Source: Gemmatimonadota bacterium | GTDB taxonomy: Bacteria > Gemmatimonadota > Gemmatimonadetes > Longimicrobiales > Gaopeijiaceae | Assembly: GCA_016209885.1 (NCBI GenBank) | Contig: JACQVF010000115.1 | Span: 31,472-95,471, forward strand | DNA length: 64,000 nucleotides | Reading direction: 5' to 3' | Shown here: positions 1-40,823 of the stretch, one piece after another | Numbering within the stretch: position 1 is the first letter of the stretch | Layout of the letters: each line of letters begins with the position of its first letter | Translations under genes and position numbers: made by a program | Notes under the pieces: model-generated | What the model was told of the DNA's origin: nothing | The model's database searches: none | Seen by the model: the letters and a program-made list of their open reading frames with translations, nothing else

Positions 1-1367
1 CCGAGCGATTCGGGCTCGGCTTCGCGCCGGCCGAGTGGAGTGCTCTGCGGAACGCGGCGGCGAAGCACGGCCTCGATGAAGCGCTCCTCCTGCGGGCCGG
101 CCTGCTCAAGGAGAGCGAGCGTGCGCAGGAGCCGTACGATCGCTTCCGTGACCGGCTGATGTTCCCGATCGAGGACGGGATGGGACGCGTGGTCGCCTTC
201 GGCGGGCGCGTCATCGGCCCCGCGGATGAGGGAGTGCCCAAGTACCTGAATTCCCCCGAGACCCCGATCTACCGCAAGGGCACGGTGCTCTACGGTCTCT
301 CGTGGGCCAAGGTCGCGATCCGGCGCGAAAGCGCAGCGCTCGTGGTGGAAGGCTACATGGACCTGGTCTCGCTCGCGGCTCGCGGCATCGAGCCCGTGGT
401 GGCGACGCTCGGGACTGCGATGACCGACGAGCATGCCCGGCTCGTCGCCCGCTACTGCAGCCGCGCCTTGCTCCTCTACGACAGCGATCTCGCCGGCCTG
501 CGGGCGACGTTTCGTGCGGGCGATGCGCTGCTCGCCGCAGGGGTTCATCCCTCTGTGGTGACGCTGCCGGCCGGCGACGATCCGGACTCGGTCGTGCGTC
601 GCCACGGCGTCGACGCGCTGCGGCGCTATCTCGCGGAGGCGGTCGACGTCCTGGACCGCAAGCTGCAGATTCTGGAGGAGCGTGGCGCGTTCACGACCAT
701 CGAGGGGACTCGGGATGCGCTGGATCGGCTGCTCCCCACGATCCGCTGTACCAAGGACGCGGCGCTGCGGGACATCTATGCGGCGAGAGTGGCAGAGCGC
801 ACCGGCGTACGGCGCGAAACGATCGAGGCGGAGCTCCTGCGGGGCGTGGCAGCGGGATCGCGCGGGGGCGGTCGTCCGGCTGCGGCGCCGCGGGGCAGAA
901 TCGGTCCGCTGCCTAGACTCGGCCCGGAGCGCAAGCTCCTGCTGCTCCTCGTGAAGGCGCGCGACTGGATTGACCGTGCGGTCGAGCGCCTCCACCCGGA
1001 GCAGTTCGGCGATCCAGCGCTGCGCGAGATCTTCGAGGCGCTGGTGGCAGACCCGGAGCTCAAGCACCCGCCGCCAGGGATGAGCCCGGGGGCGGCGACG
1101 CGGTTTGAGGAGCTCACGGGCGACCCCGAGATCCTGGCGCAGGCCGACCGCATCTTCGACGACTCGGTCAGGAAGATCTTGGTCCGGGATATCGACGCAC
1201 GCATCGCCGATGTCGACCGGCGCCTCGCGGAGGCCGCAGAATCTGAGCATTCGCGCCTGGTGCTCGAGAAGCAGGACCTCGCGCGGGCACATCGGGAACT
1301 TGATGAAGATTGGCGGCCCACGGCTCGCCGCTACGCGCAGACTGGGCTGCCCCGGCTCCAGCCGTAG
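1..1367 (+). CDS. dnaG: DNA primase DnaG, C-terminal portion (5' end cut by window edge)
   Basis: Frame continuous from position 1. Translation has TOPRIM-region motifs (LMFPIEDGMGRVVAFGGRVIG, KYLNSPETPIYRKG, EGYMDLVSLAARGI) typical of bacterial primase, plus the C-terminal helicase-interaction region. Confidence 0.85.
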   Translation, partial: ERFGLGFAPAEWSALRNAAAKHGLDEALLLRAGLLKESERAQEPYDRFRDRLMFPIEDGMGRVVAFGGRVIGPADEGVPKYLNSPETPIYRKGTVLYGLSWAKVAIRRESAALVVEGYMDLVSLAARGIEPVVATLGTAMTDEHARLVARYCSRALLLYDSDLAGLRATFRAGDALLAAGVHPSVVTLPAGDDPDSVVRRHGVDALRRYLAEAVDVLDRKLQILEERGAFTTIEGTRDALDRLLPTIRCTKDAALRDIYAARVAERTGVRRETIEAELLRGVAAGSRGGGRPAAAPRGRIGPLPRLGPERKLLLLLVKARDWIDRAVERLHPEQFGDPALREIFEALVADPELKHPPPGMSPGAATRFEELTGDPEILAQADRIFDDSVRKILVRDIDARIADVDRRLAEAAESEHSRLVLEKQDLARAHRELDEDWRPTARRYAQTGLPRLQP

Positions 1368-1379
1368 CCAGGCATACCA

Positions 1380-1403
1380 GGTCGCTGAAGCTCTTCAGCG
1401 ACC
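1380..1403 (+). terminator. Post-stop palindromic hairpin GGTCGCTGAAG-CT-CTTCAGCGACC (no U-tract); member of a repeated motif
   Basis: Perfect 11-bp inverted repeat starting 13 nt after the dnaG TAG. The same 11-mer recurs after the rex and recJ stop codons. Confidence 0.4.
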
Positions 1404-1530
1404 GGCCAGGACGGGACGGGCGGTGCGGGCGCGGGCGAGGCGAAGGCGATGGGTGGAGGGCACGGAGCGAAGAGGATGGAGCCGGATTGAACGGAGCGCG
1501 AGCCTGGCATCGCGACGGGGCGCGGAGGAT

Positions 1531-2256
1531 GTGCGCACGGACATTTCCGAGACTCTGGAATCGCTGAAGGCGCTGCAGAGGCTGGACGCGGAGATCGCCG
1601 ACGCGGAGCGGCGCGTGGAAGACATTGAGCCGCGGCTCGCCGAGCTGGAGGCGCCCGCTCACGCGCTGGAGGTCGAGGCGGAGGCCGCGCGCACGCGCAT
1701 CCGGGAGATGCGGATGGACGAGCGCCGCCTCGAGCGCGTGGCCGACGAGAAGCGCCAGCGGCTCCGCCAGCTCGAGGAGCGCCTCAACCTGGTGCGCAAC
1801 GTGCGGGAGGAAGCGGCGGTGCGTGCAGAGATCGACCTGGTGCGCCGCGCCGCGGAGACGGATGAGCAGGAGGCCCTCGAGCTGCTCGACCAGATTCGCC
1901 GTACCGAGGTGCGCCTGCAGGAGCTGGAAGGGAAACTGGAGTCCGCTCGGGGGGAGATCGGGCCGCAACGCCAGGCGTTCCTGGAAGTGCAGCGGACCGC
2001 CCAGGAGCAGTTGGCGATCCTCCGGGACCGGCGGGCGAACCACGCGGTTCGCATCGGCGCCGCGGCGCGCGAGGCGTACGAGCGTGTGCGCTCGGGACGC
2101 ACGCGGATGGCGGTGGCGGTACTCACGGAGGACGGTGCCTGCGGCCATTGCTTCAGCGTCGTCCCGCTCCAGCGGCAGTGGGAGATCCGGCGCGGTGCTG
2201 CACTGATTCACTGTGAGGCCTGTGGCGTGATCCTCGCGCCCCCCGATTCGCCGTAG
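1531..2256 (+). CDS. Zinc-ribbon domain protein (COG1579-like coiled-coil protein with C-terminal CxxC...CxxC)
   Basis: In-frame GTG at 1531. Long charged coiled-coil region followed by CGHCFSVVP...CEACGVIL C4 zinc ribbon. Length ~241 aa fits this family. Confidence 0.6.
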   Translation: MRTDISETLESLKALQRLDAEIADAERRVEDIEPRLAELEAPAHALEVEAEAARTRIREMRMDERRLERVADEKRQRLRQLEERLNLVRNVREEAAVRAEIDLVRRAAETDEQEALELLDQIRRTEVRLQELEGKLESARGEIGPQRQAFLEVQRTAQEQLAILRDRRANHAVRIGAAAREAYERVRSGRTRMAVAVLTEDGACGHCFSVVPLQRQWEIRRGAALIHCEACGVILAPPDSP

Positions 2257-7138: not shown

Positions 7139-8769
7139 GGCGGGAGGCGGTCCCGGGCTGGACGCTCCCGGAGGCGGTCCGGGAGGCGCTGGACGATTTT
7201 CGGCGCGAGTTCGGCTGGGACGTCCATATCTGGGCCGCGCCGAACGGCGCTCGGCGCGTTCACCTCTACCCACGCGATGCGGCGGCGGGCGACATGCGCC
7301 CGGACAGCCTGGTGCGGGCCGTCTCGCCGCGGGACGGCCCGCCCCTTGAGATCGAGCTGCGCGCACCGTCCCCCCTCGCCCCCCAAGTCCTCGCTTTCCT
7401 AGCCGCCACCGTAGATCGGATCCTGGCGTTCGACCGCGAGGTTCGTTTTTTCACTCGCGAGCTCGTGGAGCGGTACGAGGAGATCAATCTGCTGTACTCG
7501 ATCAGCGAGACGCTGGGCTCGATCCTGACGTTGAAGGACGCGGCGCGTGCCATCCTGGGCGAGGTGAGCGACGTGATGGGGGCCCGCCGTGCCGCGCTCT
7601 GGGTGTACGAGCCCGAGGACGCACATCTGCATCTCGTGGCCGCGGTGGGAGAGGAAGGTCTGCAGGGACCGCTTGCCGCGGACGATGCGCAGGCGGTCAC
7701 GGCGCGCGTCTTTCGGGAGCGCACGCCGCTCATCCTGGACCGGGAGCCGGTCCCGGAGTACGCGGGCGCCGATGAGGGAGGGGCGCAGCCGAAGGCCGGG
7801 CGCAAGGGCCCGCGGCGCGCGCCGCGGCGGACGCGCACGCGTGAGTCCGATTCGTTCCTCTCGGTGCCCATCCGCTACTCACCGCCGCAGGGCGAGCCAC
7901 GCACCGTGGGGGTCGTGAACCTCATCGGGCGGCGGAACGGCGGTCGCTTCACCCCGGCCGACCAGAAGCTGTTGTCGGCGATTGCCAGCCAGATCGGGGC
8001 GGCCATCGAAAACAGCCGGCTGGTGCGGGAGAGTCTGCGCCGGGAGCGCATCTCCCGCGAGATGGAGCTGGCCCACGACCTCCAGATGAAGCTGCTTCCG
8101 TCTCTGGAGCACATCGGGGGCGCGGAGATCGCGGCCCGCTGCGAGCCCGCGGAGCTGGTAGGCGGCGACTTCTACCAGCTCTTCCGGCTGGCGGGTGGAC
8201 GCATCGGCGTAATGATCGGCGACGTCTCGACTCACGGGTTCGGCGCCGCCCTCATCATGGCGCTGGCCACCAGCGCGGCGGGCATCTACGCCCACAGTGA
8301 CGCCACGCCGGCCGAGGTCCTGAGCCACATGCACGCCGCGCTCATCGACGAGCTGGAAAGCACGGAGATGTACCTCACGCTCTTCTACGGCGTGCTGGAT
8401 CCCGCGGCCGGCGAGCTGGTCTACGCGAACGCGGGGCACCCGCACGCGTTCCGTGTGCGCCGCGGCGGACCGGCGGTGCGGCTCGCGGCCGCGGACCCGC
8501 CCTTTGCGATCACGAGCGAGCGGGAGTACCACCAGGCGCGTACGACCTGGGCCGCGGGAGAGGATATGCTGCTCCTCTTCACGGACGGGCTCTCCGACGC
8601 GCTGGCCACCGAGGGCCGGAATCAGGGCGAGCGCCGCGTGCTCGATGAGGTCCGCCGGACGGACGACGCGCCGCTCCGCGCCATCGTCGACCGGCTCTTC
8701 GCCCTGGCTGCCGAGGTGGGGAGGGAGGTCCGCGGCGACGACCGTACGGCGATCCTGATCCGCACGTGA
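7135..8769 (+). CDS. GAF-domain PP2C-family phosphatase (SpoIIE/RsbU-like)
   Basis: ATG overlaps the upstream stop. N-terminal GAF-like region, C-terminal PP2C region (GGDFY, IGDVSTHGFGAALIMA, FTDGLSDA); 544 aa. Confidence 0.8.
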   Translation: MRREAVPGWTLPEAVREALDDFRREFGWDVHIWAAPNGARRVHLYPRDAAAGDMRPDSLVRAVSPRDGPPLEIELRAPSPLAPQVLAFLAATVDRILAFDREVRFFTRELVERYEEINLLYSISETLGSILTLKDAARAILGEVSDVMGARRAALWVYEPEDAHLHLVAAVGEEGLQGPLAADDAQAVTARVFRERTPLILDREPVPEYAGADEGGAQPKAGRKGPRRAPRRTRTRESDSFLSVPIRYSPPQGEPRTVGVVNLIGRRNGGRFTPADQKLLSAIASQIGAAIENSRLVRESLRRERISREMELAHDLQMKLLPSLEHIGGAEIAARCEPAELVGGDFYQLFRLAGGRIGVMIGDVSTHGFGAALIMALATSAAGIYAHSDATPAEVLSHMHAALIDELESTEMYLTLFYGVLDPAAGELVYANAGHPHAFRVRRGGPAVRLAAADPPFAITSEREYHQARTTWAAGEDMLLLFTDGLSDALATEGRNQGERRVLDEVRRTDDAPLRAIVDRLFALAAEVGREVRGDDRTAILIRT

Positions 8770-9637: not shown

Positions 9638-11023
9638 ATGAGCGAGGTGGGAATCCGGACCGACGGCGCGGCGGGCGAACACCCGCGGCTGCGGGCGCTC
9701 GGGCTGCATCGTCGCGAGCTCCGCGCCTGGGCGATGTACGACTGGGCGAACTCCGCCTTCGCGACCACGGTCATGGCCGCGGTGCTGCCCATCTACTACG
9801 TCCGAGTGGCCGCCGCAGACCGACCCCCCAACGTCGCGCTGGCGTACTGGAGCTACACCGCATCCGTCAGCCTGCTGCTCATCGCCATCGCGTCCCCCGT
9901 GCTGGGGGCAATGGCCGATTACCTGGGGGCCAAGAAGCGGTTCCTGGCCGGGTTCGTGGGGCTCGGCGTCGTCGGTACCGCCTGCCTCTACTTCGTGAGC
10001 CGCGGGGACTGGCTCCTCGCCTCCATCTGCTTCCTCGTGGGGAACGCCGGGTTCGCCGGATCCATCATCTTCTCGGACGGCCTATTGCCCCACATCGCCC
10101 GCGCCGACGAGATCGACCGCGTATCGGCCGGCGGCTGGGCCCTGGGCTACGTGGGGGGCGGACTCCTCCTGCTCATCAACCTGATCATGATCCAGCGGCC
10201 GGGGCTCTTCGGCTTCGCCGATGCCGCCGCGGCTACCCGTGCGGCCTTCGTCACCGTCGCGGTCTGGTGGGCGGCCTTCTCCGTTCCCATCCTGCGCTCC
10301 GTCCCCGAGCCGCCGCGGCGGTTGCAGGCCGCCGAAGCCCTCCACGCGAACGCGATCCGCGTGGCGTTCCGCCGCCTCCATGAGACCGTCGGCGAGATTC
10401 GCGAGTACCGCGAGGTCGTCACGATGCTGGTCGCATTCTGGTTCTACTCGGACGGCATCGGCACCATCATCAAGGTCGCAGCCGCCTATGCCACCTCCAT
10501 CGGCATCATCGGCGAGGCGTCGCTCCTGGGCGCGCTCCTCTTCGTCCAGCTCGTGGGCATACCGTTCACCTTCCTCTTCGGCACGCTCGGCGACCGCATC
10601 GGCGCAAAGAGCGGGATCTACCTGGCCCTGGGCATCTACGTGCTCATCGCGATGCTGGGATACTTCATGACCCGGGCCTGGCACGTCTGGGCGCTCGCCT
10701 TCGGGATCGGCATGGTCCAGGGTGGCGCACAGGCCCTCAGCCGCTCCCTCTACGCCACCATGATTCCGCGCACGAGATCGGCAGAGTTCTTCGGGTTCTT
10801 CAGCGTCTTCGAAAAGTTCGCCGGAATCGCCGGACCCGCATTGTTCGGACTCGTCAGCCAACTGACCGGCACCGGACGCCTCGGCATCCTCTCGCTGCTC
10901 GTCTTCTTCCTCGGCGGAATCCTCCTCCTCACTCGCGTGGATGTGAAGGAGGGAAGGCGAGTCGCCCGTCTCGAGAACGCCAAGCTCGCACCCGCCTCAA
11001 CCCCGAGCCCGCCGATCCTCTAA
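9638..11023 (+). CDS. MFS transporter (UMF1/MFS_1-like)
   Basis: ATG at 9638 inside the longer ORF. About 12 predicted hydrophobic segments; 461 aa. Confidence 0.7.
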   Translation: MSEVGIRTDGAAGEHPRLRALGLHRRELRAWAMYDWANSAFATTVMAAVLPIYYVRVAAADRPPNVALAYWSYTASVSLLLIAIASPVLGAMADYLGAKKRFLAGFVGLGVVGTACLYFVSRGDWLLASICFLVGNAGFAGSIIFSDGLLPHIARADEIDRVSAGGWALGYVGGGLLLLINLIMIQRPGLFGFADAAAATRAAFVTVAVWWAAFSVPILRSVPEPPRRLQAAEALHANAIRVAFRRLHETVGEIREYREVVTMLVAFWFYSDGIGTIIKVAAAYATSIGIIGEASLLGALLFVQLVGIPFTFLFGTLGDRIGAKSGIYLALGIYVLIAMLGYFMTRAWHVWALAFGIGMVQGGAQALSRSLYATMIPRTRSAEFFGFFSVFEKFAGIAGPALFGLVSQLTGTGRLGILSLLVFFLGGILLLTRVDVKEGRRVARLENAKLAPASTPSPPIL

Positions 11024-26337: not shown

Positions 26338-27965
26338 TGAACGCGTGTGTGCGCGCCCCGAGGTTCTGGACCGCCGCGCTCGCGTGGCTGCTGGCGGGCG
26401 CGGCTTCCCTGCCAGCTCAGGAGCGGGCGTTCTGGCGTCCCGAGGACCGCGCCGTGCTTACGGCGTTCCACGAGATCGAGGCGCTAGCCCGTGACGAGCG
26501 AAGGATCTACGCCGCGACGCCGCGCGGGCTCGCCATCTACGACTTCGTGGCGGCGCGCTGGGAGTTGCCATCCACGGAGGAGGATGGCTACCCGGTAGGC
26601 CAGATCCCCACAGCTACGGCGTTCGACCCGGCCAGCCGCGCCGTATGGCTGGCCACGGCGGACGGCGCCCTCTTCTCCTTTCAGGCCGACCTGCAGCGCT
26701 GGGATGCGTGGGGTCCGGCCGCCACGGGCCCGATCCTGCGGATCGTGCCCGCGTCAGGTCTCCCCGCGGCGTGGGGCGAAAGTGGGCTGTATGTCCTGAC
26801 GCGGGCGGGGTGGTATCGCGTAGCACGGTTCGGCGGCCCCGCCGAGCCGGTGCCCGCCGGGCGGCTGCCGCCGGAGCTCGTTCGCGCGGCCGAGTCCGTC
26901 GAGGCGCGAATCTCGGGCGCCGACCCGTTCTTCGCCGCGGTGCGTGGTACGCTCGCCCTGGACGCCATGCTCCGCAGGTGGCCGATCACGGACTACGTGG
27001 CGGACGATCGGCCCAACCGGTACTGGATCGCAACGCGTGGCGGGCATCTCCTGCACTACGATAGTCGGTTCATGCGCGCCGAGCCGCGCCCGTTCGGGTT
27101 GCTCACCGTCGGTGTGCAGTCTCTGGCTGCTGACGGCGCTGGGGGCATCTGGTTCGGAGGCGATGGCCGCGGGACGAGGCGCGGCGTGACCTGGGGCTCC
27201 GATCGCATGCAGGCGTGGCGATACTACGAGGCGGGGATCACGGGCGCGCCAGCAGGTCCAGTGTTCGACATGGTGGGCTCGGGCGCGGCGACCTGGTTCG
27301 CCGCGCCAGACGGACTCCACCGCCTCGACCTCGAGACGCAGCGCTGGCGGCGCTGGACCGAAGCCGACGGGCTGCCGTCGGCGACGGCGTACGCGCTGGA
27401 ACCGGCGCCCGACGGTGGCGTGTGGGTCGGCACGGCGGCAGGGCCGGCACGGGTGACCGCGGACGGGACGGTAGCCGCTGTATCGCTGGGTGCCCGCCAG
27501 CCGGCACGCGCGCTGCTGCTCCTCCGGGATACCCTCTGGGTCGGCGGCGATCTGGGAGTCTTCTGGCTGCTCGCCGACGGAGTCGCCTACCCGGCCACGG
27601 ACGGGGCCGGAGCAGCGCCGCCCGCACCGGTGCTGGATCTGGCGGTGACAGCGGGCGCAGTGTGGGCGCTGGCGTCAGATGCGCTTTGGCGGTGGGACGG
27701 CCAGCACTGGGACGGCCCGCAGCGTGAGGTCGCGCTCGAGGGCCTGGGTCGGCTCGCACGCCTGCGCGTCGATGGACCGGTTGTGTGGGTGGCCGGAAGC
27801 GGTGGGATCGCGCACCGCGACGCCGGGACCGGAACCTGGCGAATCTACCGCGTGGGCGCCACCATTCCCCGGGGTCCCGTGACCGACGTGCTGCCGGAGC
27901 GAGAGGTCGTGTATGCTGCGACGCCGGCCGGAGCCGTGAGGATCGCATGGACGCGCCTTCCCTGA
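26337..27965 (+). CDS. Secreted beta-propeller protein (Reg_prop-like two-component-regulator propeller repeats)
   Basis: GTG overlaps the nnr stop. Signal peptide, then repeated W..GT..GL blades (VWLATADGAL, IWFGGDGRG, VWVGTAAGPA, LWVGGDLGVF, VWVAGSGGIA). Confidence 0.65.
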   Translation: MNACVRAPRFWTAALAWLLAGAASLPAQERAFWRPEDRAVLTAFHEIEALARDERRIYAATPRGLAIYDFVAARWELPSTEEDGYPVGQIPTATAFDPASRAVWLATADGALFSFQADLQRWDAWGPAATGPILRIVPASGLPAAWGESGLYVLTRAGWYRVARFGGPAEPVPAGRLPPELVRAAESVEARISGADPFFAAVRGTLALDAMLRRWPITDYVADDRPNRYWIATRGGHLLHYDSRFMRAEPRPFGLLTVGVQSLAADGAGGIWFGGDGRGTRRGVTWGSDRMQAWRYYEAGITGAPAGPVFDMVGSGAATWFAAPDGLHRLDLETQRWRRWTEADGLPSATAYALEPAPDGGVWVGTAAGPARVTADGTVAAVSLGARQPARALLLLRDTLWVGGDLGVFWLLADGVAYPATDGAGAAPPAPVLDLAVTAGAVWALASDALWRWDGQHWDGPQREVALEGLGRLARLRVDGPVVWVAGSGGIAHRDAGTGTWRIYRVGATIPRGPVTDVLPEREVVYAATPAGAVRIAWTRLP

Positions 27966-28029
27966 GCACGAGCGGCGCTTCTCAGCGCGGCGGGCACTCT
28001 CGGCGCCGGTCGCGAAGCGGAGGCGGCCG

Positions 28030-29054
28030 GTGAGCGGGCCCGGGTCCGGCGGCGCGCGGACGGTGCGCCTGGGACCGGGGGCAGAGTTCGACCTGATCCG
28101 CCGTATCCTCGGCCGCTCCGAGCCGCCAGCCCTCGGTGCCGTGCGCGTGGGGCCCGGCGACGACTGTGCGGTCGTCCAGGGAGATGGGATCGCGATCTCG
28201 TGCGACCTCAGCGTCGAGGATGTCCATTTCCGGCGCGCCTGGCTGGAGCCCGAGGAGATCGGCTACCGCGCCGCTGCGGCGGCGCTGAGCGACCTGGCGG
28301 CGGTGGCGGCGGCGCCCATCGGGATCCTGGCGGCGATGGCGATCCCCGCGCGCGACGGCGAAGCCGTCGGGTTGCAGGTTGCCGAGGGGATCACTGCCGC
28401 GGCCCGGGACGTGGGCGCCGCGCTCCTGGGCGGGGACGTTTCCCGGTCGCCGGGACCCCTGGTCATCGACGTCATCGCGGTGGGAGAGGCACCGAATCCG
28501 ATCCTGCGCAGCGGCGCGAGGCCGCAGGATGAGCTCTGGGTCACCGGCGAGCTGGGGTGTAGTGCCGCGGTGGTGCGCCAGCTTCAGGTGCAGGGAACGC
28601 CGGGCGCGGAGGCCCGCCAGCGTTTCGCCCGGCCCCGCCCCCGCACCACCGAGGCACGCTGGCTGGCCGCGCACGTGGAGCTCCATGCCATGATCGATCT
28701 CTCCGACGGGCTCGCCGGCGACGCGGGGCACATCGCGGCCGCCAGCGGGGTCGCGGTCGTCCTGGACCTGGAGGGCATTCCGATTCACGCGGCGGCGCGT
28801 GAGGTGGCGGCCACCCACGAGGACGCGCTGCGGCTCGCTCTTGCGGGTGGCGAGGACTACGAGCTCTGCTTCGCGGCGCCCGCGGGTGCCGTGGAGCCGG
28901 TGCGCGAGGCGTTCAGGGAGCGATTCGGGATCGCGCTCACCCGGGCGGGCCGCGTCACGGAGGGGGAGGGGGTGTGGGTCGAGGATCCCGTTGGCGGCCG
29001 ACCCCGGCCGACTCCCTTCCGCGGCTTCGACCATTTCCGCGGCGGAGTGTCCGC

Positions 29055-29058
<4 letters not shown>
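28030..29058 (+). CDS. thiL: Thiamine-monophosphate kinase
   Basis: AIR-synthase-related fold motifs (GPGDDCAVV, EDVHF, LGGDVSRSP). Confidence 0.8.
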
Positions 29059-32820: not shown

Positions 32821-32893
32821 GGCGGCGTAGCTCAGCTGGTAGAGCAGCGGAATCATAATCCGTGGGTCGGGGGTTCGAATCCCTCCGCCGCTA
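32821..32893 (+). tRNA. tRNA with CAT anticodon (elongator Met or lysidine-modified Ile2; not initiator-like)
   Basis: Manual cloverleaf: acceptor GGCGGCG/CGCCGCT, D-arm GCTC-AGCTGGTA-GAGC, anticodon stem GCGGA/TCCGT, loop ATCATAA (CAT), T-arm GGGGG-TTCGAAT-CCCTC, discriminator A. No encoded CCA. The anticodon stem lacks the three G-C pairs of initiator tRNA. Confidence 0.8.
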
Positions 32894-33002
32894 CTTGTCC
32901 TACTTTGGACAGGCCAGCGACTTCGGTTGTTGGCCTGTTCGCGTTCTCCGGCCTTGACCCTGTACCTGAGTATAGAGTGCAGATTCCGCCGAGGTGAAGA
33001 AC

Positions 33003-33440
33003 ATGACGAGCCACGAACGCCTGCGCATCGGCACGGTTGCCGCCCGAGCCGGGGTGAACGTGCAGACGCTCCGGTACTACGAGCGGCGCGGGCTCCTCGC
33101 GAGACCGGAGCGCTCGCCGTCCGGCTATCGCGAATACGGACCGGAGACGGTGCGGATCATTCGCTTCATCAAGCGCGCCCAGGAGCTCGGCTTCACGCTG
33201 CGCGAGATCCAGGATCTGTTGCGCCTGCGCGAGGCGGGCGGCCGGAACCGCCGCCGGGCGCGACAACTCGCCGGTGCGAAGATCCAGGACGTCGATCAGA
33301 AGATCTGGCGGCTTCAGTCCATCAAGCGGGCGCTGGTGACGCTCGTCGAGTCGTGCGCGTGCGCCGGTTCCGAGCCCGAGTGCCCGATCCTCGAGGCGCT
33401 GGATGACGACGCTGTGGAACGGAACGGAGGGGCGCGATGA
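33003..33440 (+). CDS. MerR-family metal-responsive transcriptional regulator
   Basis: N-terminal HTH (RIGTVAARAGVNVQTLRYYERRGLL), coiled-coil dimerisation region, C-terminal Cys cluster CACAGSEPEC typical of metal-sensing MerR/ZntR/CueR-type proteins. Confidence 0.8.
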   Translation: MTSHERLRIGTVAARAGVNVQTLRYYERRGLLARPERSPSGYREYGPETVRIIRFIKRAQELGFTLREIQDLLRLREAGGRNRRRARQLAGAKIQDVDQKIWRLQSIKRALVTLVESCACAGSEPECPILEALDDDAVERNGGAR

Positions 33441-34707: not shown

Positions 34708-35229
34708 ATGAAGCGCGCGGCGTTGTGGGTCGCCTTCCTGGTTGCGCTCGCTCCCGGCAGCGCCCCGGCTCAGCTCGAGGAGATGCATCAGACCATCTTC
34801 GGGATGGACTGAGCGGTCTGTGCCCACGCCGTGCGCGTGGCCGTGCAGAAGCTCGAGGGCGTGGAAGCCATCGAGGTCAGCCTGAACCGGGGACTTGCCG
34901 TGATCAGGTTCAGGCCCGACAACGCCCTGACCGTGGATCAGGTGCGCCAGGTGATCCAGCAGAGCGGGTTCACGCCCAAGGAGGCCGAGGTTCGCATCGC
35001 CGGCAGGCTGACCGAGCAGCAGGGCCGGCTCATCTTGCCCGTGGGCGACCGGGACCGCGGCTATGTGCTGCGGGAACGGCCCGGATTCGATGGAGTGCTC
35101 GCGAAGCTCAGGGCGGCGGCACTCGACCGCGAGGTGGTCGTTGAAGGGCTGGTGCCCGAACCCGGCGACCGCGGGGAGGGCTCCTGGACGCTGGAAGTGC
35201 GCCGGTTCTCCGCGACCTCCGGAACCTGA
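34708..35229 (+). CDS. Periplasmic heavy-metal-associated (MerP-like) protein, candidate selenoprotein: in-frame TGA (34810-34812) at the first Cys of the GMxCxxC motif
   Basis: AGGAG RBS 7 nt upstream. Signal peptide, then TIFGMD-[TGA]-AVCAHAV aligning residue-for-residue with the HMA/MerP GMTCAAC metal-binding loop. The frame stays open and the downstream sequence fits the HMA ferredoxin-like fold (VQKLEGVEAIEVSL...), with a ~100-aa C-terminal extension. Confidence 0.6.
34824..34840 (+). promoter_or_regulatory. Candidate bacterial SECIS hairpin for the HMA TGA (stem CCACGC/GCGTGG, loop CGUGC)
   Basis: Hairpin begins 11 nt after the TGA, the spacing seen for the E. coli fdhF SECIS. Only 6 bp, so it could arise by chance in GC-rich DNA. 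Confidence 0.3.
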
Positions 35230-36887: not shown

Positions 36888-36958
36888 GCGCAGCTTCGCC
36901 GGCCGGCCGTCTCTGCAGGCTCGCTTGAGAACCAGCTCTCGAACTCGTGGAGGCCGGG

Positions 36959-37429
36959 ATGGCAGACGTCGTCTACACCTCGGAGGTACGCATCGAGCGG
37001 GTGGGAGGGCCGCTGCGCCGGGCCTACCTGCCCGCCGAGGAGCAGCCGGTGCACTTCGGGATGCACGGCGCCCTCGCCCAGCACTACAAGGTCGATCCGG
37101 CGGCCCTCAAGCCACATGCGGCCACGTTGGATTACGTGGTCGCCGCGGCCGCCGGGTGACTGACCGGCACCCTGGGGGGCGCGCTGGAGGCGCGCGGGAT
37201 TGCGGCGGGGGACGGCCGACTCTGGGCCGAGGGGCGCGGCGAGATCGAGACCGATGAGGGCGTGCTCGTCATCCGTCGCATCTTCGTGTGCTACCACTTG
37301 CGGGCGAGCGCGTCACAGCGCGAGGCGGCGGAGCGGGCTCATTCCGTCCACCACGGGAAGTGCCCCGTCTACCGCACGATCCACCGCTGCGTGGACATCA
37401 CGACGGAGCTCGTGCTCGAGGAGGATTGA
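36959..37429 (+). CDS. OsmC/Ohr-family peroxiredoxin-like protein, candidate selenoprotein: in-frame TGA (37157-37159) at the peroxidatic Cys
   Basis: GGAGG 5 nt before the ATG at 36959. ...ATLDYVVAAAAG-[TGA]-LTGTL matches the OsmC first-Cys motif (P.ELLLAALAGC). The frame stays open to 37429 and contains the second OsmC motif HHGKCPVYRTI (CPVS-like resolving Cys). 156 codons, normal for the family. Confidence 0.65.
37179..37195 (+). promoter_or_regulatory. Candidate SECIS hairpin for the OsmC TGA (stem GCGCGC/GCGCGC, loop UGGAG)
   Basis: Stem starts 19 nt after the TGA; the apical loop with GG lies ~28 nt from the UGA, within the typical bacterial SECIS range. Confidence 0.3.
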
Positions 37430-38655: not shown

Positions 38656-38899
38656 TTCCGTGCCGCCTCCACCTCCGTTCGCGGCCGCCGCGCGAAGCAC
38701 GTTTACGTTCTCGACTGGTAGATACGGGATCTTTGTACCGAACGGGCGCGACAGCACGAGCACGCTCAAGAATCGCCTGACGCCGCCGCGGCCGCAAGGC
38801 GCCAGTGGCGTGCCTGGCGCGCCGACGGCGTTTGCCGGGCTTGGGCTACGCAGGTATCTTTGCCACGGACCCGGCCCGGGACGCGAAGGGACGCAAGAG

Positions 38900-39433
38900 A
38901 TGACTCGAGGTTCGAAAGACGCGCCGGCTTCCGTACTGGCTGAGCGGCGAGTCCATCTCCAGCGGGTGCTGGGGCGCGCGCTCGCGCCCCGTGACGCTGC
39001 GTCGACGGAGCGGCTCCCCGAGCACATCCGCCGCCACCTCGTGGAGGAGGCGGAGGACCTCTACTGGAACGAGCTCGAGTGGGAGAACGTCACGGCGGAG
39101 GAGGCGCTGGACGAAGGGAGCCTCACCGAGCTGGCGTTTCCGGCGTTTCTGGCCTTCGTCGACGCGCTCCTCGTAACCGATCCTATCAGCGATCTGCCCG
39201 TCGAGCCGGTCCCGCGTGTGGACGTCGTTGGTGACATCCTGCGCTTCCTGGCCGACCGCGTACTGGAGCTGCGCCCTCAGCGCGAGCCGGGGCCGGACGG
39301 CGACCGCGAGGCGCGTGCAGAGCTGGCCATGGCCACGCGGCTCATCGATCTGGTCCTCTACCGGCTCTACGGGCTTACATCCGAGGAGATCGAGCAGGTG
39401 GAGGCGTCCGGGGCGTCCGATGACGGGCGCTGA
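38900..39433 (+). CDS. Hypothetical protein (177 aa)
   Basis: ATG at 38900 in a long open frame, divergent from argJ. No recognised domain; acidic. Confidence 0.45.
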   Translation: MTRGSKDAPASVLAERRVHLQRVLGRALAPRDAASTERLPEHIRRHLVEEAEDLYWNELEWENVTAEEALDEGSLTELAFPAFLAFVDALLVTDPISDLPVEPVPRVDVVGDILRFLADRVLELRPQREPGPDGDREARAELAMATRLIDLVLYRLYGLTSEEIEQVEASGASDDGR

Positions 39434-40823
39434 GGTCCCGGCCAAGCACCCGTTGCGCCCCTCGCTCCCCGAGCGTTTCGTCGCCCACGTGCGGCGGCGC
39501 CGCCTCTGGAGCACGGGCGATCGCGTCGTCGTGGCGGTGTCCGGCGGGCTCGACTCGCTGGTGCTCCTTCACCTGCTGCGTTTCACGGCGGAGGACCTGG
39601 CCCCGTACCTACACGTGGCCCACTTCGACCACCGCATGCGGCCCGGGAGCCGCATCGACGCCCGCTGGGTCCAGGGCGTCGCCGCCGCCTGGGAGTTGCC
39701 CGTCACCGTGGGAGCCGCCGACGAGCCGCTCGCCTCGGAGGCGGAGGCGCGCGAGCGCCGCTACGTGTTCCTGGAGGAGGTACGCTGCCAGGTGGACGCC
39801 CGCGTGGTGGCCACCGCGCACCACGCGGACGACCAGGCCGAGACGGTGCTCTTCCGCGTTCTTCGCGGCAGCGGGATCGGCGGGCTCGTCGGCATCGCCG
39901 AACGGCGCCCTCCCGGCATCGTGCGGCCGCTGCTCCCCTTCTTCCGCGCTGAGCTGGAGGCCTACGCCCGCGGGGCTCGTATCGGGCACCTGAAAGACCC
40001 CACCAACCAGCTTGTGACCTACGCCCGCAACTGGATCCGCCACGAGCTCCTGCCGAGCGTCGAAGGCGCGATCGCGCCCGGCGCCCGCCGCGCTCTGGTG
40101 CGCCTCGCACGCCTGGCTGGCGAGGCCGAGGCCGCCTGGCAAAGCCTGCTGCCGGCGCTCCTCGCGGACGTCGAGGCTCACGCCCAGGAGGACCGAATCG
40201 TCCTTGCCCGAAGCCGCTTTCTGAAACATCATGGCGATGTGCAGGCACGCATCCTGCGTGAAGCGCTGCGCCGCTTCGGGACCACGCTCGATCAATCGGG
40301 AACCCGGGCGGCGTTGGAGTTTATTATGTCCGGGGAAAGCGGCCGCACGATGACGATGGCTCGCGGCATCCGGATCCGGCGCGACTTCGATCGCATCGCC
40401 GTGATGCGGGAGTCGGATGAGCGGATCAGCGACCGGCCGCTCCGAATCGAGAGCCTCGGTCCGGGATCCGGAGAGCTCGTTGTGGCAGGGCGGCGCATGC
40501 GGGCGACCTGGTCGCCTGACGCGCCACCCGCGGGCCAGTGGTGCGAGGCATTCGCCCCGGAGGCCGTTGAACCACCGCTCACTCTCCGTGCCTGGCGTCC
40601 GGGCGACCGGCTCCGGCTGCCGTACGGATCGAAGAAGCTGAAGAAACTGCTGGCCGAACGGCGTATTCCTGCGGAGGACCGGTCCCGACTCCCGGTACTG
40701 GTGGACCGCCGCGGGACGGTGCTGTGGGTGCCGGGCATCGCGCGAAGCGTCGATGCCCTCGTGGACGCATCCGCGGCCCGGTTCTTCATCGCCCTGTCCG
40801 ATGCCCGCAACGATGCACGCTGA
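39420..40823 (+). CDS. tilS: tRNA(Ile)-lysidine synthetase
   Basis: PP-loop SGGLDS (VVVAVSGGLDSLVLLHLL), TilS substrate-binding and C-terminal domains; 467 aa. Confidence 0.8.
   Translation: MTGAEVPAKHPLRPSLPERFVAHVRRRRLWSTGDRVVVAVSGGLDSLVLLHLLRFTAEDLAPYLHVAHFDHRMRPGSRIDARWVQGVAAAWELPVTVGAADEPLASEAEARERRYVFLEEVRCQVDARVVATAHHADDQAETVLFRVLRGSGIGGLVGIAERRPPGIVRPLLPFFRAELEAYARGARIGHLKDPTNQLVTYARNWIRHELLPSVEGAIAPGARRALVRLARLAGEAEAAWQSLLPALLADVEAHAQEDRIVLARSRFLKHHGDVQARILREALRRFGTTLDQSGTRAALEFIMSGESGRTMTMARGIRIRRDFDRIAVMRESDERISDRPLRIESLGPGSGELVVAGRRMRATWSPDAPPAGQWCEAFAPEAVEPPLTLRAWRPGDRLRLPYGSKKLKKLLAERRIPAEDRSRLPVLVDRRGTVLWVPGIARSVDALVDASAARFFIALSDARNDAR

Follow-up and report, generated by a model that had tools for sequence, protein, structure and literature searches.

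Selenocysteine (Sec, U) has been on record in OsmC-like proteins of prokaryotes since 2005, when Zhang, Fomenko & Gladyshev listed the family from the Sargasso Sea with three sequences, similar to COG1765/YhfA and carrying a UxxT motif (PMC1088965). Five OsmC-like selenoprotein sequences were reported in Global Ocean Sampling (GOS) data in 2008, and the family is still listed in reviews of 2022 and 2026, with MBR72571.1 and MCS5647933.1 as their respective examples (PMC9312934, PMC13188914). AACY01145085, from the 2005 supplement, is a protein of 137 amino acids (aa) with Sec in IVAGIGF-U-LLTQL and a second Cys in KQGCFAENL, and its hairpin, GAAGCG-GUA-CGCUUC, lies 14 nt past the UGA (PMC1088965). 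In Ohr and OsmC themselves, the first Cys is peroxidatic, the second is resolving, and lipoyl proteins serve as reductants; a catalytic Arg and Glu near the peroxidatic Cys occur in Ohr and OsmC and not in YhfA (PMC8945050). Here we report that a 64-kb stretch of a Gemmatimonadota contig (64,000 nucleotides of JACQVF010000115.1, hereafter the window, in whose numbering positions are given) carries at 36959-37429 a gene for a 156-residue protein of the OsmC/Ohr fold, the UGA codon 67 of which is probably decoded as Sec. We put the probability of this reading at roughly 0.87.

The features of the gene are as follows.

36959..37429, + strand: predicted selenoprotein gene of the OsmC/Ohr superfamily, 156 residues (U67) plus TGA stop (from translation, Pfam, homologs and coding composition)
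36949..36953, + strand: Shine-Dalgarno sequence GGAGG, 5 nt before the ATG (from the sequence)
37157..37159, + strand: putative Sec codon (U67), an in-frame UGA that aligns with the first (peroxidatic) Cys of the OsmC fold (from column comparison)
37179..37195, + strand: hairpin GCGCGC-UGGAG-GCGCGC resembling a selenocysteine insertion sequence (SECIS), with stem 37179-37184 / 37190-37195 and apical loop UGGAG 37185-37189, within codons G-A-L-E-A-R
37361..37363, + strand: codon of Cys135 in the CPVYR motif, the presumed resolving Cys (invariant in two alignments and aligned to the CPV Cys of 1UKK)
37427..37429, + strand: true stop codon TGA (from translation)

From the ATG at 36959 the frame runs through 66 codons (MADVVY...AAAAG) to the TGA at 37157-37159, then through a further 90 codons to the TGA stop at 37427-37429. 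G+C content at third codon positions (GC3) is 0.89 before the in-frame TGA and 0.91 after it, and at second positions (GC2) it is 0.45 on the 5' side and 0.49 on the 3' side; the 69 nt preceding the ATG have a GC3 of 0.61. An earlier reading made from the letters of the stretch and a list of its open reading frames (ORFs), which we call the sequence-only reading, had described this one frame, with a TGA after 66 codons and 90 codons onward, and both the translation and the matching composition on the two sides bear it out. It had also proposed a comparison with Pfam OsmC (PF02566) with Cys substituted for the TGA; so treated, the window protein scores 43.8 bits over residues 58-150, above the gathering cutoff of 27.5 bits. 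Full-length homologs are 50-69% identical to the window protein, the identity to relatives is alike on both sides of the TGA, and tblastn alignments cover residues 1-155. When the window was scanned for further in-frame TGAs flanked by coding signal, the cases found besides this gene were all ordinary pairs of neighbouring genes. Of the 28 Pfam-supported window genes, 18 end in TGA as their regular stop, and the genetic code is therefore standard.

The strongest evidence on the identity of codon 67 comes from other genomes. A scan of one genome per species (GTDB species representatives) found more than 583 relatives, and in all of the best 80, which were inspected, the U67 column holds TGA (80/80; L001-L080, of which 79 are in the main alignment and L061 was examined separately). 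These loci come from at least ten phyla and range from 42 to 73% GC, and both the 5' 66 codons and the downstream frame are conserved across all 80 genomes. By the group labels in the record titles, with MAG standing for metagenome-assembled genome, they divide as follows.

Acidobacteriota, mostly Bryobacterales: 43 of 80
Desulfobacterales / 'delta' (Desulfobacterota): 12 of 80
Chloroflexota: 8 of 80
Methylomirabilota / Rokubacteria: 6 of 80
Gemmatimonadota: 2 of 80
Nitrospirota: 2 of 80
Poribacteria: 2 of 80
KSB1, Bacteroidota, Haliangiales (Myxococcota), a MAG labelled Clostridia and an unclassified MAG: 1 each of 80

More distant homologs supplied a comparison set of 36 separate loci, every one of which has TGC or TGT at the same column (36/36). 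Cys-containing and TGA-containing homologs accordingly align at one column, as the sequence-only reading had held. Two hallmarks of a selenoprotein are present: the in-frame UGA aligns with the Cys of homologs, and the UGA and the frame downstream of it are conserved in independent genomes.

A protein search returned 241 homologs at E <= 0.001, and among the best 120 of these the Sec column is recorded as C in 51 and as 'W' in 41. One 'W' homolog, P0004, was followed back to its DNA (locus L129, 1774-2250), where the codon is TGA and the database sequence is obtained only with code 4, in which TGA specifies Trp. The same TGA origin is the simplest explanation for the remaining 40. All 41 'W' proteins (P0001, P0004 and 39 others) belong to a metagenome collection, and they look like artefacts of gene calling on short contigs that hide selenoproteins. 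A further group of homologs consists of 87-89-aa proteins that begin just past the Sec column, and it includes the recorded product of the window gene, MBI4541366.1. Neighbour-joining puts the window protein within a large TGA clade, beside which stand one large Cys clade and one mixed clade; this pattern indicates that Sec and Cys were exchanged several times. Inside the TGA clade and near the window protein are three full-length proteins (P0026, P0049, P0039) in which the Sec column is occupied by Ala, Leu or Gly; they are possibly catalytically dead derivatives.

The codon is accompanied by a hairpin that is nearly as constant as the TGA itself. In the window its stem starts 19 nt past the TGA and its loop 28 nt beyond the first base (U) of that codon, and its folding energy is -12.8 kcal/mol. 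The published description of a bacterial SECIS is a stable stem-loop just 3' of the UGA that has a guanosine in its small apical loop (PMC1088965), and the window hairpin, shortly 3' of the UGA and with a small G-containing loop, conforms to it. The 60 nt that follow the TGA align gap-free over 79 distinct TGA-form sequences, with GGC GCG CTG GAR GCG standing nearly always as codons +7 to +11. Codon entropy at +7, +8, +9 and +11 is 0-0.23 bits, compared with ~1.5-1.9 bits at other four-fold codons of the gene; codon +10, which lies in the loop, varies only between GAG and GAA, and codon +12 is CGC or CGT, so that the closing pair is G-C or G-U (39:39). The consensus of the TGA forms is GCGCGC-UGGAR-GCGCGY with a stem of 6-7 bp, the six pairs 23-28 / 34-39 being standard in at least 98% of the 79 sequences. 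Two loci (L060 and L069) have a compensatory double change from G-C to A-U, made at the cost of an Ala-to-Val substitution, and one (L052) has a single stem mismatch.

The Cys forms provide a control for this pattern. Of 45 unique Sec segments 42 carry the hairpin motif, all 25 unique Cys segments lack it, and the median minimum free energy of the 25-nt segment is -12.9 kcal/mol for Sec compared with -7.0 kcal/mol for Cys (Mann-Whitney p = 3.5e-11). The very same peptide, GALEARG, is found in two Cys forms, which spell it with GGA GCG CTC GAA GCC CGC and GGT GCT CTT GAA GCC CGC, and neither has the hairpin. Since the peptide can be kept without the hairpin, and since the TGA forms keep the motif over 42-73% GC, the nucleotide conservation goes with the TGA rather than with the peptide or base composition. 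The argument for a putative SECIS is built on these frozen synonymous sites and on the Cys-form control. The sequence-only reading had proposed 37179-37195 as a SECIS, and the proposal holds up well: the position is exact, the synonymous sites are frozen, and the motif is confined to the TGA forms. No Rfam model matches the hairpin.

A separate observation concerns some of the Cys forms (L108, L101, L104 and L098/L099), which have a weaker hairpin 19-43 nt past the Cys codon. That of L108, CGCGCAC-UGCAG-GUGCGUG, folds at -11.8 kcal/mol and is similar to the variant seen in L060 and L069, GCGCAC...GUGCGC. Such hairpins may be fossil SECIS elements left after a switch from Sec to Cys.

The structural evidence is drawn from an AlphaFold (AF2) model of a Cys ortholog, P0003, which is 60% identical to the window protein and not the window protein itself. 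The model is of high confidence (predicted local distance difference test score, pLDDT, of 96.4). By its structural matches the model has the OsmC fold, which is defined by an N-terminal beta-sheet and a long helix packed on a second sheet. In a Foldseek search its top 50 matches in the PDB are all OsmC, Ohr or OsmC-like proteins, with template modelling (TM) scores of 0.61-0.72 over ~150 columns and with identities of 8-18% among the matches listed. It aligns with solved structures over its full length (~154 columns), and the N-terminal 66 residues are part of the OsmC domain; neither the 66-aa piece before the TGA nor the 89-aa piece after it is therefore a complete domain. Sequence profiles place the catalytic residues in the same way. 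A profile of 60 sequences, a smaller one having given no match at E <= 0.01, finds T. thermophilus OsmC (1UKK) as its best match in the PDB (E = 6.8e-6), and in the resulting hidden Markov model (HMM) alignment the TGA column falls on the 'AGC' Cys and CPV on the second Cys. In the HMM alignment with E. coli YhfA (1ML8) the TGA column likewise falls on the first Cys. The two-Cys pattern of the superfamily is present, with U67 on the helix and C135 about 65 residues later, and C135 is invariant in both homolog alignments. The conserved polar residues of the window family are H36, D58, Y59 and R121. The sequence-only reading had placed the TGA at the first catalytic Cys of the OsmC fold, on which the 1UKK and 1ML8 alignments agree, and had regarded the second Cys motif as intact, as the CPVYR motif with its invariant Cys135 is. 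Its term 'Ohr-like hydroperoxidase' stands in so far as it refers to the OsmC/Ohr fold and the Cys pair; the activity itself would follow from these by inference.

Taken together, these features suggest how the protein may be made and may act. The hairpin, a 6-7 bp G+C stem with loop UGGAG placed 19 nt past the UGA and inside the coding sequence, would act as a bacterial SECIS, bringing SelB.GTP.Sec-tRNA(Sec) to the ribosome so that the UGA is not read as a stop. Sec67 would take the place of the first (peroxidatic) Cys on the long helix of the OsmC fold, and Cys135 of CPVYR that of the resolving Cys. By analogy with OsmC and Ohr, the Sec67 selenolate would attack a hydroperoxide or other oxidant and would then form a selenenylsulfide (Se-S) with Cys135, and a thiol or lipoyl donor would reduce the Se-S bond again. 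Peroxidase chemistry and the type of reductant are thus ascribed to the window protein only by analogy.

Evidence that a carrier of this family decodes Sec comes from L024, a Bryobacterales MAG (CAVPZQ010000013.1, 4044-10462). Here selD (- strand), selA, selB and a tRNA-Sec lie 1.3 kb upstream of the TGA copy, the OsmC-like selenoprotein gene at 10001-10462. The scores are 513 bits for selD, 582 bits for selA (TIGR00474) and 413 bits for selB (TIGR00475), all above curated cutoffs, and the tRNA-Sec at 8631-8726 is found by both ARAGORN and Rfam (RF01852, 71.6 bits). Sec decoding thus accompanies the family in at least one carrier. L024 is the only one of the 80 loci in which Sec machinery adjoins the OsmC-like gene, and when its SelA, SelB and SelD were compared by tblastn with the window and L001-L080, nothing but the matches to L024 itself came back.

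So, is codon 67 of the window gene decoded as Sec in its own organism? Several points weigh against it. None of selA, selB, selD and tRNA-Sec was found within the 64-kb window, and with the search confined to that stretch Sec decoding in the window organism is unproven. The hairpin is not conspicuous in its own context: in this sequence of 70% GC the 60-nt fold has z = 0.14 relative to shuffled sequence, and the 25-nt hairpin alone reaches z = -2.46, its stability being matched by 6 of 200 shuffles. Unremarkable when taken alone, it owes its above-chance evidence to the comparison with other genomes. Strict covariation is thin, since the stem is nearly constant, and amounts to a single pair in two sequences. 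At 19 nt, the spacing from UGA to stem exceeds that of E. coli fdhF, which is 11 nt. No conserved neighbour gene hints at a reductant or substrate among the 81 loci compared, and the literature searched holds no biochemical characterisation of this subfamily or of the marine OsmC-like selenoproteins.

The explanation that best survives as a competitor is that the gene is a relic, its lineage having lost the Sec machinery, so that it is decaying and yields only a 66-residue fragment. The empty window would suit this, as would the switching among Sec, Cys and other residues in the family, with Ala, Leu and Gly occupying the column in members of the Sec clade. In a genome of several Mb, however, the lack of these genes from 64 kb carries little weight, and the gene does not look like one in decay: its 90 codons past the TGA are intact at a GC3 of 0.91 with C135-P-V invariant, its hairpin is perfect, and the identity to relatives is similar before and beyond the TGA over the tblastn span of residues 1-155. 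We consider a relic unlikely. With the hairpin perfect, the downstream frame intact and C135-P-V invariant, we infer that the window organism probably decodes Sec, a judgement for which the machinery was sought in its 64-kb window.

Even less probable is a TGA that stands for something other than Sec, whether through a sequencing or assembly error for TGC or TGT, through near-cognate read-through as Trp or Cys, or through a reassigned code. UGA-C is a leaky stop context, and 'W' is recorded at the column in 41 of the best 120 of 241 homologs. The one such case inspected, P0004, has however been seen to hold TGA and to yield Trp only under code 4, and Trp in place of the catalytic Cys would be inactive. 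The identical TGA in 80 independent assemblies from at least ten phyla rules out a sequencing or assembly error, and the use of TGA as an ordinary stop in the window speaks against reassignment. The specificity of the hairpin for TGA forms, and the tRNA-Sec, selA and selB that adjoin the L024 copy, likewise point to Sec.

The least credible alternative is two small genes, or the truncated gene as it stands in GenBank, with the TGA a genuine stop and an 89-aa protein starting at CTG 37160: it has on its side the annotation by the Prokaryotic Genome Annotation Pipeline (PGAP) of this record and of two relatives and a full protein without any NCBIfam match, yet the OsmC fold requires residues 1-156, the 89-aa piece begins within the active-site helix right behind the catalytic residue, no Shine-Dalgarno sequence precedes CTG 37160 while a strong one precedes ATG 36959, and the 5' 66 codons are conserved in 80 genomes. 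The annotation in question is only an 89-aa 'OsmC family protein' (MBI4541366.1, 37160-37429) that starts from the CTG directly past the Sec TGA. MDH3271973.1 (Gemmatimonadota) and MFZ0548074.1 (Promineifilaceae) are truncated likewise, and no NCBIfam model matches the full-length window protein.

Sec decoding of codon 67 remains the reading we prefer, and we turn to what surrounds the gene. The sole tRNA in the window is a tRNA-Met (32821-32894). Beyond it lie the genes of a MerR-family regulator (32976-33440) and of a small protein with a heavy-metal-associated (HMA) domain (34813-35229). The MerR and HMA genes, ~2 kb upstream of the selenoprotein gene, may constitute a metal-responsive module. 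A Pfam scan of 30 coding-like window ORFs found none related to Sec. One candidate for selD, an AIRS/AIRS_C protein at 27940-29055 (+ strand), proved to be ThiL (TIGR01379 at 259.8 bits, cutoff 184), the selD model giving only 70 bits for a cutoff of 125; in a quick scan this ThiL is easily mistaken for a selenophosphate synthetase. Two further ORFs have a coding-like GC3 of 0.83: one at 38849-39568 (- strand) with no Pfam or NCBIfam match, and one at 1084-2253 (+ strand) with no Pfam match, whose overlap with the 3' end of dnaG (3-1367) is in a different frame. In the comparison of 81 loci, an apparently large neighbour 'cluster' was an antisense shadow ORF of the OsmC-like gene itself. On the soil metagenome contig of L129, a 439-aa AhpC-TSA/Redoxin gene (286-1605, - strand) divergently adjoins the OsmC-like selenoprotein gene, a pairing that is not conserved over the 81 loci.

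The family may be useful in several ways. Relatives are recorded as 87-89-aa fragments or with Trp in the active site, and a simple rule, or an HMM combined with the hairpin motif, would fix many such records. For uncultured phyla that have been little studied, including Acidobacteriota (Bryobacterales), Methylomirabilota, Chloroflexota and Gemmatimonadota, the pair of TGA and hairpin provides a compact marker of the Sec trait. A hairpin that is near-invariant across phyla offers a natural test case for SelB recognition outside E. coli and a clean SECIS data set, and a comparison of Sec67 with Cys67 would reveal what selenium contributes in a peroxidase that lacks the thioredoxin fold.

How, then, does the gene compare with the described systems? 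With the thiol-dependent organic hydroperoxide reductases OsmC (E. coli 1QWI/1NYE, T. thermophilus 1UKK) and Ohr (such as 6EB4 and 1ZB9), the window protein has in common the same fold (TM ~0.62-0.72 over ~150 columns) and the two Cys positions, but the identity is only 12-18% and Sec replaces the first Cys. The third OsmC subfamily, that of YhfA (1ML8), M. pneumoniae MPN625 (1LQL) and Ta0195 (2ONF), supplies the top structural matches (1LQL, E = 1.1e-8; 2ONF, E = 1.3e-8) and has the two-Cys pattern, and the function of this subfamily is unknown (PMC8945050). The match in sequence is weak, however (1ML8, E = 0.058), and the window family has the OsmC-like CPV and not the second motif of the YhfA type.

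The nearest precedent is the marine OsmC-like selenoprotein. Both proteins match Pfam OsmC, both are known from sequence alone, and both have Sec on one column, BLASTP aligning LDYVVAAAAG[U]L of the window with LAYIVAGIGF[U]L of the marine protein. In each, moreover, another Cys follows downstream, and a short hairpin that contains G lies soon past the UGA. Beyond this they differ. The marine protein has 137 aa and F-U-L-L-T, whereas the window protein has 156 aa, G-U-L-T-G-T and CPVYR. The UxxT motif does not extend to the window protein, in which U-L-T-G-T has Gly at +3, between Thr residues at +2 and +4. The hairpins are GAAGCG-GUA-CGCUUC at 14 nt and GCGCGC-UGGAG-GCGCGC at 19 nt, respectively. 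BLASTP finds 28% identity over 39 residues (E = 0.008), hhalign gives a probability of 8.5%, and no protein of the 137-aa type is among the best 120 of the 241 homologs (E <= 0.001). The described marine family comprises 3-5 sequences, whereas the window clade takes in at least 80 species-level genomes with titles spanning at least ten phyla. Similarity to the marine protein falls short of family level, which suggests that the window gene belongs to a different and far more widespread subfamily.

The sequence-only reading had held that a Sec-dependent Ohr-like enzyme would be notable, but with OsmC-like selenoproteins on record since 2005 (PMC1088965) that novelty was overstated. The literature searched contains no description of the window clade or of Sec use in Gemmatimonadota, the example accessions of the reviews not having been compared, and the subfamily may already be catalogued. 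We therefore offer only tentatively, and at somewhat less than even odds, the proposal that this is a second Sec-containing OsmC subfamily, independently evolved or long diverged, that has not been explicitly described. It would be defined by a length of ~156 aa, by G-U-L-T-G-T...CPVYR, by the dominance of Sec and by a near-invariant SECIS over at least ten phyla, mostly in uncultured lineages known from MAGs, Gemmatimonadota among them, where pipelines truncate the protein or give it a Trp. In relation to the known systems the novelty is modest: the window gene is a new member, and possibly represents a new subfamily, of a known kind of selenoprotein.

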